A DNA stretch of 64,000 bases. Source: Candidatus Saccharimonadales bacterium. GTDB taxonomy: Bacteria > Patescibacteriota > Saccharimonadia > UBA4664 > SCTI01. Positions 58,242 to 61,030 of the stretch are shown here, piece after piece. The notes beneath the pieces were generated by a model. That model did not search any database, was not told where the DNA came from, and saw nothing but the letters and a program-made list of their open reading frames with translations. How positions within the stretch are numbered: position 1 is the stretch's first letter; the number at the start of each line of letters is the position of its first letter. The DNA lies in the NCBI GenBank assembly GCA_035479795.1, contig DATIII010000001.1, forward strand, positions 7,087 through 71,086, given 5' to 3'. The position numbers and the translations under genes were made by a program.

Positions 58242-59103
58242 GCTTGTTTTAGCATCGCTGGGCGGATTGATTATTGCCTTCGGGGTTGGCTTTGCCATCT
58301 GGCTACAGACACCTTGGGCGCATGACAAAGCCAAAACCCTGGCTGCCCAAGCCAAGGTGCTTGAGAAGACCAACGAATATGATGCATTGGTGAAATACCA
58401 GATGGCTACCTTTCTGGATCCCGCAAATGCAAGCTATGAAAATGCCATTGCCGACCTGTACCTCCAGCGCCATCGCCCCGATGCCGCTATCTTAGCTTTA
58501 GGGCATCTGCCAAAAGGGGAGGGGAGACAACGGATTGCTGAGATTCAGTTCCGGCAAGGCAAGTATGATGAAGCCGTTCGAACTCTGATTGACGATCGCA
58601 GCGGGCCGGCCATTGAGCTGACCGCCAAGTGCCTGATGGAGAAAGGGCAGGGGAGTGCCGCCGTTGAGCTGTTAACACGAGCCGATACTGATGAAGCAGC
58701 GCTGCTAATGGCGCTGGCGCAGGCCAGCCTCAGCCAGCCGGTTACTAAGCGTAGTGTCAGCTCACCTGAAGCCGCCCAAGCCTTGCAGCGGGCGGAAGCC
58801 GGCAAACTGCCATTAGCGCAAGAACTTTACACCAGAGGGCTTCTGCACAGCTCTCAGCGCGTTCTAGAATCTGTACCCAACGACAATGTTGAGAAATTCA
58901 AGCTTTTAGCTAACATCAATCTGTCAATCCAGCCGGTTACATCAGCCGGGCTTAAGCAAGCTCAATCGGTCGCCCAGGCGGGTTTAAACCTCAACCCGGG
59001 CGACCTACCACTTAGAAAGCTGCTACGAGACGTCGATATAAAGCTTGGCCTAAGTCAGGAAGCCAGTCGGCAAACCAACCTAATAAATGAGCTGAGCCAC
59101 TAG
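58213..59103 (+). CDS. Membrane-anchored TPR-like repeat protein, hypothetical.
   Basis: N-terminal TM helix, helical repeats. Overlaps the valS 3' end by 29 nt. Confidence 0.5.
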   Translation: MPKSKLSKPKLVLASLGGLIIAFGVGFAIWLQTPWAHDKAKTLAAQAKVLEKTNEYDALVKYQMATFLDPANASYENAIADLYLQRHRPDAAILALGHLPKGEGRQRIAEIQFRQGKYDEAVRTLIDDRSGPAIELTAKCLMEKGQGSAAVELLTRADTDEAALLMALAQASLSQPVTKRSVSSPEAAQALQRAEAGKLPLAQELYTRGLLHSSQRVLESVPNDNVEKFKLLANINLSIQPVTSAGLKQAQSVAQAGLNLNPGDLPLRKLLRDVDIKLGLSQEASRQTNLINELSH

Positions 59104-59363
59104 GTTTCGGCCAGCTTTAGCTCGACCATTGGTCGATCCCCAGCTATAACGGCCTGGGCCCGCCAAAAACCGGTTCTGTCCTTGTTGCGCCGGACAAACA
59201 GCGGGCAGCCTGGCTGGATGTGACGCTCCGACGGGCTAAAGCAAGCTCGCAGTCTGAGACAGGGAAGTCGACCGTTCAGTTCGGCTGACAGGTGCCACAG
59301 CTTCATTCGGCCAGTTCCTGGCTCCGGCGCGATCACCATGGCCGTCTGGCAAATGTCAGTCAC
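59100..59363 (-). CDS. Hypothetical ORF (87 aa, GTG start); weak.
   Basis: ORF only, in a GC-rich block. Confidence 0.2.
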   Translation of the reverse strand: MTDICQTAMVIAPEPGTGRMKLWHLSAELNGRLPCLRLRACFSPSERHIQPGCPLFVRRNKDRTGFWRAQAVIAGDRPMVELKLAET

Positions 59364-59440
59364 GACTACCTCACTTTTTGGGTACTAACGTTAGAGTTTT
59401 AGTTTAGGCCGGTACCGAACAAAAAGCAAACATAGTATTA

Positions 59441-59482
59441 ATAATTGCGTCATACGGACGGACGCATTCCGTTGCGTCCGTC
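59441..59482. other. 13-bp perfect hairpin ACGGACGGACGCA-TTCCGT-TGCGTCCGTCCGT followed by TTTT.
   Basis: Read in the sequence. Lies ~40 nt downstream of the stop of 59521-59820 on the minus strand and has a + strand T-tract. Confidence 0.5.
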
Positions 59483-59520
59483 CGTTTTCCCCGGCCAAGT
59501 AAGGCTAGGAAAGCGGGTGG

Positions 59521-59820
59521 TCAGGCCGAAACCGGACCGAAGTAGGAGATGAACAGCACATTGCACTGGGCGCTGATGGCCAGGTCGCACAGGAACAGAT
59601 CCCATTCGTCGTCCAGGTCCTCGCGCTTGTCGAGCAGTTGGTCGCGGCGCTCGGCGGCTTCACCCATCAGCATCTGGACACAGTCCGGCCAGGGCAGATC
59701 CCGCAACGACTGGATGTCACCCGACTGCACCTTGGTCGGTTCTGGACGATGGAACCTACTCGTGTCATCCGTCCCCTCATCGGTGCTCGGATCACGTACT
59801 GGATGCGTAACTGCGGGCAT
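59521..59820 (-). CDS. Hypothetical protein (99 aa), acidic; island gene 2.
   Basis: ATG at 59820 preceded by AGAGGAGAGAT. The longer track ORF is rejected. GC-rich. Confidence 0.45.
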   Translation of the reverse strand: MPAVTHPVRDPSTDEGTDDTSRFHRPEPTKVQSGDIQSLRDLPWPDCVQMLMGEAAERRDQLLDKREDLDDEWDLFLCDLAISAQCNVLFISYFGPVSA

Positions 59821-60017
59821 ATCTCTCCTCTTGGTGGGTCGATGTTCTGGGCGACAATGTTCGGACAAACCGATCATCGCGCTCTTCGGTGTCCTGCATT
59901 CTGGCCGAAACGGGGATGGAGGCCACCAGCAGCGCCGTTTGCACAGCATTGCCAGCCTGCGTACCCATCCACACTCCAGCCTTCAGCCAACCCTTGGCAG
60001 CTTCTACAACCATGGTT

Positions 60018-60539
60018 CTACCTCGAGACGAGCTTGAGGCCGGCTGTCTCCTGGCCAGTGCGAACAAATCGCGCCTGGCTGCCGATGCGCGTCAGCGGAG
60101 CCAGCCCTGGGATTGGGCGGTCGGCCAGACTGTCCGGCATCAGCGGTACCCAGAAGCGATCGGCGTACTGGCCGTCCTTCTGAGCCAGCGCTTCATGCAC
60201 CGGTTCGAGCTGGATGCAGACGGTTGGCCGCAAGGGGTCAAATGCCACCTTGTCGTCGCGAGTTGTGGCGTCGTGTCGCCAAGGCAGTACCTGGGCGTAA
60301 GGCTCTTCGCACAGCGCAAAGTCGCCTTCCTCAGTCTCGATGTAGGGCAGCCAGGTAGGCCAGGGTCGCTTGGACCCAGCCATGCCGCGGTCGAGTCTTT
60401 CGACCGTCCGGCGCACCAAATTGGCCGCCTCGATCATCATCACTCCACCCGGGAGCATGCCCAGCATTAGCTTGGGCAGCCCACCGGAACTTTCCTGACG
60501 CGCCAGTTCCACATAGGAACCACCGATCAAATCCAGCAT
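60018..60539 (-). CDS. Hypothetical protein (173 aa); island gene 1.
   Basis: ATG at 60539 preceded by AAAGAGGAGAGA, almost the same SD 10-mer as the downstream gene. GC-rich. Confidence 0.5.
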   Translation of the reverse strand: MLDLIGGSYVELARQESSGGLPKLMLGMLPGGVMMIEAANLVRRTVERLDRGMAGSKRPWPTWLPYIETEEGDFALCEEPYAQVLPWRHDATTRDDKVAFDPLRPTVCIQLEPVHEALAQKDGQYADRFWVPLMPDSLADRPIPGLAPLTRIGSQARFVRTGQETAGLKLVSR

Positions 60540-60822
60540 GTGGCAGTCTCTCCTCTTTCGTTTTACTCCGCCTCTATGAACTCGCCGTGCAGACATCGTG
60601 AATGCAATGAGCCAGAGTAAAGATTTAAATGTGCACGTTGGCCATCTTAACAGTCTGGTCGTAGTCGCTCATCAGCACGCCTACAAAAATGCGCAGACGG
60701 TGCCTGACGTAATTGTTGGATCTGACTATAGGCACTAAAAAAGCGCCTTACCAAGCGCCTAGTTGTATTTGATGCCCTGCGACTAATGAAATGATAACAG
60801 AAATTGACAAAAATAACAAACC

Positions 60823-60840
60823 TTGGCGGAGAGGGTGGGA
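60823..60840. repeat. 18-nt direct repeat of the 3' end of tRNA-Ser(CGA) (TGGCGGAGAGGGTGGGAT on the + strand); att-like scar.
   Basis: Exact 18/18 match to 60941-60958, ~100 bp beyond the tRNA 3' end. Confidence 0.65.
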
Positions 60841-60940
60841 TAGCTACGCATGTCTCCTCGCCTAATCTTGTGCAAGATTAGCACAATCCGGCTTGTCGGC
60901 AACGAACCCAGACGTGGGTTCGAATCGTTGAATAAATCCC

Positions 60941-61030
60941 TGGCGGAGAGGGTGGGATTCGAACCCACGGCACCGTTGCCGGCACACTTGTTTTCGAGAC
61001 AAGCCAGTTCAACCACTCCTGCACCTCTCC
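60941..61030 (-). tRNA. tRNA-Ser (anticodon CGA), CCA encoded.
   Basis: Acceptor GGAGAGG/CCTCTCC. Anticodon arm CTTGT-CTCGAAA-ACAAG. Long variable arm. T-arm GTGGGTTCGAATCCCAC. Confidence 0.85.

Follow-up and report, generated by a model that had tools for sequence, protein, structure and literature searches.

The stretch examined here lies between the gene for a TPR-repeat protein and a tRNA-Ser(CGA) gene in a metagenome-assembled genome of Candidatus Saccharimonadales (NCBI locus tags VLF21_003xx). It was analysed within a window of 64 kb, which is the whole piece of DNA considered in this study. Two features occupy the stretch: a displaced copy of the tRNA-Ser 3' end and a GC-rich block of three small orphan genes. 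To the left, two FemAB genes are followed by TsaD, ValS, and the TPR protein gene (58213..59103, plus strand), which forms the conserved left flank of a variable slot. To the right, the order is tRNA-Ser(CGA) on the minus strand, a 178-aa membrane protein, tRNA-Arg(GCG), tRNA-Ser(TGA), tRNA-Ser(GCT), a ComF-family protein, and Hsp20. Saccharibacteria are epibionts, and their accessory genes are almost entirely uncharacterised.

The displaced 3' end of tRNA-Ser

The intact tRNA-Ser(CGA) gene is located at 60941..61030 on the minus strand (ARAGORN; Rfam tRNA, 56.3 bits). Its last 18 nt, at 60941-60958 on the same strand, are repeated exactly as the 18-mer TGGCGGAGAGGGTGGGAT at 60824..60841, also on the minus strand. 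An earlier interpretation made from the sequence alone (hereafter the sequence-only reading) had recognized this repeat, placing it one base off at 60823-60840. The two copies are 117 nt apart, start to start, and 0.02 matches with three or fewer mismatches are expected by chance. In tRNA sense, the 18-mer comprises the last 2 nt of the T-loop, the 3' half of the T-stem, the 3' strand of the acceptor, and the CCA. Beyond the 18-mer, identity falls abruptly from 18/18 to about 40%, which is the background level. This sharp boundary argues for site-specific exchange over uniform decay.

The displaced copy is a terminal 3' piece that lies 99 nt downstream of the intact tRNA, is co-oriented with it, and has its boundary in the T-loop. 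The Islander scheme maps islands in tRNA genes (tDNAs) by such a combination of an intact tDNA with a displaced terminal 3' fragment, downstream and co-oriented, and the crossover subsites of tDNA islands are the anticodon-loop, the T-loop, and the T/acceptor junction (PMC4383910). In the window, the intact tDNA and its cognate fragment are on the same replicon, and the position, orientation, and T-loop crossover of the fragment agree with the scheme. Degraded remnants of tDNA islands and prophages share this likeness. However, tDNA islands also carry a tyrosine integrase gene between tDNA and fragment and are 2-200 kb long with cargo (PMC4383910). Between tRNA-Ser(CGA) and the fragment there is no integrase gene; the repeats enclose only 99 bp, without cargo and with inverted T-arm debris, and the GC-rich genes lie outside them.

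The cognate tRNA of the fragment is ambiguous, since tRNA-Ser(TGA) carries the identical 18 nt at its 3' end (61869-61886, opposite strand). The 3' end of tRNA-Ser(GCT) has one mismatch to the 18-mer. The sequence-only reading had proposed that further copies of the 18-mer would delimit an island. None was found that could bound the GC-rich block: 58900-60823 contains neither another copy at up to six mismatches nor shorter pieces of the tRNA 3' half. The genes for tRNA-Ser(CGA) (60941-61030) and tRNA-Ser(TGA) (61801-61886) are inverted relative to each other, lie 888 bp apart, and have identical 30-nt 3' ends. An inversion of the intervening 178-aa gene and tRNA-Arg could occur between them. 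The Logan contigs (k=31) of this genome and of its relative L003/L004 break exactly at this pair.

A 28-nt tRNA-Ser 3' end is found exactly in more than 120 contigs of IMG/VR. It is therefore a generic bacterial tRNA-Ser end and no lineage signature. Among the viral loci L013-L092, the exact 28-nt end lies within about 130 nt of a contig end in roughly 8 of about 21 whole-contig IMG/VR loci. These positions are consistent with frequent use of the tRNA-Ser 3' end by prophages, as an attachment site or as a boundary, and the frequency of tRNA-Ser 3' ends at viral contig ends is a further likeness to tDNA islands. Two relatives (L009 and L010) contain a near-identical tRNA-Ser(CGA) without the duplicate, and neither is syntenic with the window; the contigs of the syntenic relative end inside tRNA-Ser. 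In L010, the order and orientation of these tRNA genes differ from those in the window, which indicates that the tRNA-Ser paralogues have been rearrangement breakpoints.

The 99-bp interval between the repeats

The two 18-mer copies enclose a gene-free interval of tRNA-derived debris (60842..60940). ARAGORN and Rfam detect no tRNA in it, and it contains no integrase gene; ORFs (open reading frames) of at least 40 aa there run through the tRNA gene and are unannotated. A small hairpin and an inverted T-arm piece, both already noted in the sequence-only reading, are present. The hairpin has a stem of 8 bp (TAATCTTG/CAAGATTA) and is located at 60863-60880. The T-arm piece, CGTGGGTTCGAATC at 60913-60926, is a 14-nt exact match to tRNA-Ser CGA and TGA. 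A longer stretch, AGACGTGGGTTCGAATC at 60910-60926, matches the tRNA at 46024-46094 exactly over 17 nt, which is better than its match to tRNA-Ser. The T-arm-like fragment as a whole occupies 60903..60926 on the plus strand and overlies an 8-bp palindrome, CGAACCCA-gacg-TGGGTTCG, at 60903-60922. An in silico re-inversion of 60842-60926 brings the T-arm piece directly up to the 18-mer. Upstream of it, a weak resemblance to the D/anticodon stem of tRNA-Ser(CGA) then appears, at a level that 16 of 1000 shuffles reached. The trailer of the tRNA was considered as a structured RNA and rejected (z -1.0), and Rfam reports only tRNAs in the region and in the whole window.

Two further tRNA calls are located near 46 kb on the minus strand. 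One is a tRNA-Cys (ARAGORN, anticodon ACA) at 46023-46094 with the loop CCACAAG; it lacks U33 and scores only 42.9 bits with Rfam. The other, at 46218-46288, is an ARAGORN 'tRNA-???' with a 2-nt anticodon and is negative in Rfam at the gathering score.

A GC-rich block of three overlapping genes

At 59521-60539, the GC content is 0.614, a value that no other 1-kb stretch of the window reaches (mean 0.527, standard deviation (sd) 0.026, z 3.35). The block is also among the top tetranucleotide outliers of the window. The GC content at third codon positions (GC3) of genes A and C is 0.74, against a mean of 0.595 (sd 0.058) for the genes of the window. That reading had counted two ORFs in the block, but there are three overlapping co-oriented genes of 173, 73, and 99 aa, all on the minus strand. 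Gene A (VLF21_00385, 60018-60539), an orphan, is supported by gene calls and the NCBI annotation, and gene B (VLF21_00380, 59792-60013) and gene C (VLF21_00375, 59521-59820) by independent gene calls together with NCBI. Gene B starts 4 nt past the stop codon of gene A, and gene C overlaps gene B by 29 nt. The product of gene B has a moderately hydrophobic centre (around residues 19-39) and a charged C-terminal half, and that of gene C is acidic.

Two start codons, those of genes A and C, are preceded by the same 10-mer, AGAGGAGAGA, which the sequence-only reading had described as nearly identical ribosome-binding sites. One copy lies at 60547-60556, 7 nt upstream of the ATG of gene A. The other lies at 59822-59831, within the coding sequence of gene B and 1 nt before the ATG of gene C. 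Upstream of gene A, a 16-nt leader motif (60560..60575, minus strand; AGAGGCGGAGTAAAAC in gene sense) is conserved in the window, L003, and L007; in each of these cassette versions, its end lies 22 nt upstream of the first start codon. An intrinsic-terminator-like hairpin with a T-run is located at 60741..60760 on the minus strand, downstream of the tRNA and the displaced fragment. Beyond the distal copy of the 18-mer, the layout is therefore terminator-like hairpin with T-run, leader, and genes A-B-C. On the other side of the cassette, the 13-bp perfect hairpin of the sequence-only reading is present at 59454-59485, between the cassette and the convergent TPR gene (fold z-score -5.1). A reading of this hairpin as an integron attC site was dropped, as an integron integrase is lacking and three genomes conserve the hairpin as a terminator-like element between convergent genes.

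Homology searches with the orphan genes

An exhaustive HMMER search of 1.8 billion representative proteins yielded one homologue of gene A, P0005, with 43% identity. A word-indexed homologue search with gene A retrieved only gene A itself, and no homologue of gene C was found. Pfam, NCBIfam, PADLOC, and PHROGs gave no credible match for A, B, C, the 87-aa ORF next to the TPR gene, or the ORFs of the relatives. With E-values of up to 1 allowed, none of the PADLOC defence and toxin-antitoxin profiles matched A, B, C, or the 87-aa ORF. The similarity to phage or plasmid proteins that a prophage or plasmid remnant would show was not seen in tblastn searches against INPHARED and PLSDB. Scans of IMG/VR with the family alignments of A, B, and the 105-aa protein of L003, and a PDB sequence profile search with the gene A alignment, also gave no match. 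The AlphaFold2 models are of low confidence: the predicted local distance difference test (pLDDT) score is 28.9 for gene A, from a 2-sequence alignment, and 57.9 for gene C alone, which is modelled as helical; neither model is good enough to search for related folds.

A-B-C resembles toxin-antitoxin and defence modules and phage lysis cassettes in being a compact set of small, overlapping, fast-evolving genes. The likeness includes one product with a hydrophobic segment and a charged tail. A-B-C differs from these systems in having no match in PADLOC, PHROGs, Pfam, NCBIfam, PDB, INPHARED, PLSDB, or IMG/VR. An exchangeable operon with small hydrophobic and acidic products might point to an interaction or immunity-type module.

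The slot in related genomes

The lineage is thinly sampled. The TPR protein has only two relatives, with 47-50% identity, both on short Logan contigs. A scan of the GTDB species representatives with the TPR protein and its alignment found no relative. The ValS-TPR-cassette join was recovered in contigs of two independent sequencing runs. Chimeric assembly is unlikely, since the join is reproduced across these runs. The source runs are SRR9179560 and SRR9179562 for this genome, SRR33230283, SRR33230284, and SRR28401833 for the L003-type relative, SRR28401841 for L007, and SRR22742741 for L006.

In L003/L004, ValS is 78% and the TPR protein 49% identical to the protein in the window. The order in L003 is ValS, TPR, hairpin, two ORFs of 105 and 132 aa on the minus strand, leader, terminator region, a 236-aa gene, and the tRNA-Ser end; the contig terminates after 29 nt identical to the tRNA-Ser 3' end. 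The two small ORFs have a GC content of 0.68-0.70 and a GC3 of 0.80-0.81, against a GC3 of 0.63-0.65 for ValS and TPR of L003. No similarity to A, B, or C is detectable in them. The 13-bp hairpin and the preceding motif AATAATTGC are common to the window and the relatives L003 and L006. On the tRNA side, the intergenic region at 60640-60760 is weakly colinear with L003 4450-4570 (z 3.3, reached by 4 of 500 shuffles), and the colinear stretch includes the terminator-like element. Orthologous flanks with non-homologous content between them were thus found in two syntenic genomes, to which one short contig, L007, is added. The sequence-only reading had named conserved core genes as the case that would speak against a foreign block; instead, the slot content differs in a relative and the genes are orphans.

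L007 is a 974-nt contig that encodes P0005, the homologue of gene A, and has the same order of A, B, and a third gene. Its 78-aa gene is homologous to gene B (45% identity, z 21.7). Its third gene, however, is homologous to the 105-aa gene of L003 and not to gene C. The combination of A and B homologues with an L003-type third gene shows that modules are shuffled between cassette versions. Gene A, its counterpart in L007, and the 132-aa protein of L003 have only the first dozen residues in common. Between the window and L007, differences are fewest at the second codon position, more frequent at the first, and most frequent at the third, with synonymous change at saturation. Of the residues conserved between the two, more than half use different codons. 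The codon-position pattern and these codon differences indicate that the reading frames are real and that the divergence is old. GC3 nevertheless remains at 0.74-0.81 in all three cassette versions despite the saturated synonymous divergence.

The 236-aa gene of L003 (4655-5365), between the terminator region and tRNA-Ser, encodes a predicted membrane protein with a Pro-rich tail. It has no counterpart in the 64-kb window, which indicates gain or loss directly beside the tRNA.

Origin of the repeat and the cassette

The joint explanation that we favour, with a probability of about 0.45, is that a recombination hot spot with two separate features lies between the TPR gene and tRNA-Ser(CGA), and that A-B-C is a compact, translationally coupled three-gene operon of a rare mosaic family of orphan cassettes. 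The 18-nt repeat is most likely left over from a site-specific recombination event at the T-loop/3' end of tRNA-Ser. We infer that an integrase-type element would have inserted there, regenerating the tRNA end and displacing the original end downstream. The element would then have been almost wholly deleted, and this would have been accompanied, at the near-palindromic T-arm, by a local inversion or by the formation of a palindrome. The GC-rich block lies outside the repeats and is not bounded by tRNA fragments, and the slot is replaced in a relative; together these points argue for a separate variable cassette slot. The best reading of the block is accordingly an independently exchanged variable cassette and not what the element implied by the repeat left behind, and any link between the repeat and the block is hypothetical. 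The scar of a decayed element proposed in the sequence-only reading therefore stands in part. The canonical tDNA scar layout and the foreign-looking orphan genes are there, whereas the block lies outside the repeats and the 99 bp between them are gene-free. A tRNA 3'-end repeat alone does not delimit neighbouring foreign-looking genes.

Cassettes would be swapped horizontally from a GC-richer gene pool, within a slot bounded by the hairpin on the TPR side and by the leader motif and terminator region on the tRNA side. At 78% identity of ValS, orthologues would be expected to be recognizable, yet the content is replaced while the flanks persist, and this points to repeated horizontal exchange. 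Such exchange fits better than decayed cargo and than plain vertical inheritance. The route would plausibly be homologous recombination in the flanks after DNA uptake. The RecA and ComF-family proteins encoded in the window and the natural competence of Saccharibacteria (PMC10633639) make exchange via flank homology plausible.

Variable loci of this type are known from competent bacteria. The pneumococcal capsule locus, between dexB and aliA, is swapped by homologous recombination. The slot in the window is similar in its conserved flanks and intergenic signals around unrelated mosaic content, in its deviant composition, and in a host with RecA and ComF from a competent phylum. It differs in size and in number, with about 1 kb, three tiny orphan genes, and three known instances. 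As instances, the orphan cassette family and the conserved slot are new, and a small tRNA-linked variable region is ordinary in kind. If the slot is a real site of cassette exchange, it offers a handle on strain-level variation in Saccharibacteria and three new orphan protein families that share a conserved operon design. With a low probability, the slot might even be dedicated to exchange, and strains of this lineage would then shuffle GC-rich, modular three-gene orphan cassettes (A/132 - B - C/105) from a pool of their own, with the tRNA-Ser debris as a by-product. This would amount to a hypervariable system not described before, which might serve host-cell interaction or immunity in these epibionts.

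Several observations weigh against the favoured explanation. The 20 integrase-sized ORFs examined in the window are all housekeeping genes (RecA, sigma-70, and GroEL among them), and neither they nor the neighbouring genes include an integrase, in agreement with the sequence-only reading; no excisionase, phage, or plasmid genes were found in the window or the related loci. The tRNA-like sequence in the interval is wrongly oriented, and simple integration followed by deletion predicts none. At 117 nt, the two repeat copies are spaced just as the members of the adjoining tRNA array are (119 and 116 nt). The searches revealed no donor pool of cassettes, and the claim of a hot spot is based on two syntenic genomes, with three cassette instances known. 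The array-like spacing and the extra tRNA-like sequence, which exceeds what an attachment-site duplication would copy, are as in tRNA pseudogenes and tandem duplicates. They suit a history without any mobile element, in which the 117-bp unit is a wrecked tandem copy of tRNA-Ser, or arose when the four tRNA-Ser paralogues, whose 3' ends are shared, recombined ectopically or underwent gene conversion, and was scrambled later by template switching at the near-palindromic T-arm. The T-arm piece with the weak D/anticodon stem match, the inverted CGA/TGA pair with its identical 30-nt ends, the altered tRNA order and orientation in L010, and the presence of RecA also agree with such a history. We nevertheless consider it somewhat unlikely. 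A decayed tandem tRNA would be colinear over most of its length, but colinearity and exact identity are limited to the 18 nt, the remainder being inverted or unrecognizable, and 18/18 identity beside near-random sequence is unlike uniform decay. Furthermore, the tRNA-like body has the opposite orientation to the 18-mer and best matches another tRNA, so that at least three events are needed, and streamlined genomes rarely retain dead duplicates. As candidate origins of the repeat, an integrase-type event is ranked somewhat above purely local duplication or ectopic recombination.

The block itself could be explained in two other ways. One tyrosine-integrase island at tRNA-Ser(CGA) might have left both the repeat and the GC-rich block and have lost its integrase and distal boundary; in a variant, the copy at 60824 is the internal junction of a tandem array, and tandem arrays at tDNAs are known (PMC4383910). 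The canonical repeat geometry fits this, as does a block of orphan genes that has the highest GC content in the window and is placed immediately past the distal repeat and terminator. But the block is outside the repeat pair, 58900-60823 has no third fragment at up to six mismatches, and neither an integrase nor a pseudogene trace of one was found. In addition, the flanks of the block are conserved in the relative around a different cassette, and the tRNA there is separated from it by another gene. A single island is therefore quite improbable. The operon might instead be native, vertically inherited, and fast-evolving, encoding for example surface or host-interaction proteins, with its GC3 due to selection or GC-biased conversion. 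Its same position with conserved flanks and leader in two genomes is in line with this, and so are the first dozen residues common to A, its L007 counterpart, and the L003 132-aa protein. The search of 1.8 billion proteins with gene A found no donor homologues in other taxa, and another ORF of the window also has a GC3 of 0.75. Vertical residence should, however, erase the GC3 gap of 0.15-0.2 to the host genes, which persists despite saturated synonymous divergence. The cassette proteins show no detectable similarity although ValS is 78% identical, and module combinations are shuffled between contigs. We therefore regard a native operon as unlikely and retain the favoured explanation of a tRNA-Ser scar beside an independently exchanged cassette.

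Neighbouring sequences and other features of the window

Between the TPR stop codon and the conserved hairpin, the window has about 340 extra nt (59104..59440), which include the annotated 87-aa ORF VLF21_00370 (59100-59363, minus strand). L003 has a gap of about 35 nt at this place and L006 has essentially none, since the AATAATTGC motif there abuts or overlaps the TPR stop codon. This extra segment may be a second junction scar. Within it, 22 nt at 59227-59248 are 86% identical to the TPR 3' coding region at 58942-58963. A pseudo-copy of the TPR 3' end was considered for these nucleotides and rejected, the match being too weak at this length and identity and reaching a z of 2.6 at the protein level.

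A second GC-rich patch (about 0.60) is located at 38700-39830. It contains a 253-aa ORF (39068-39829, minus strand) with a GC3 of 0.75 and no Pfam family, which may be another foreign or orphan gene. At the left end of the window, a 1186-aa ORF (185-3745, minus strand) has nearly flat GC contents of 0.48, 0.53, and 0.48 at the three codon positions and only a weak match to CarboxypepD_reg. Possible explanations are a giant surface protein and an overcalled frame.

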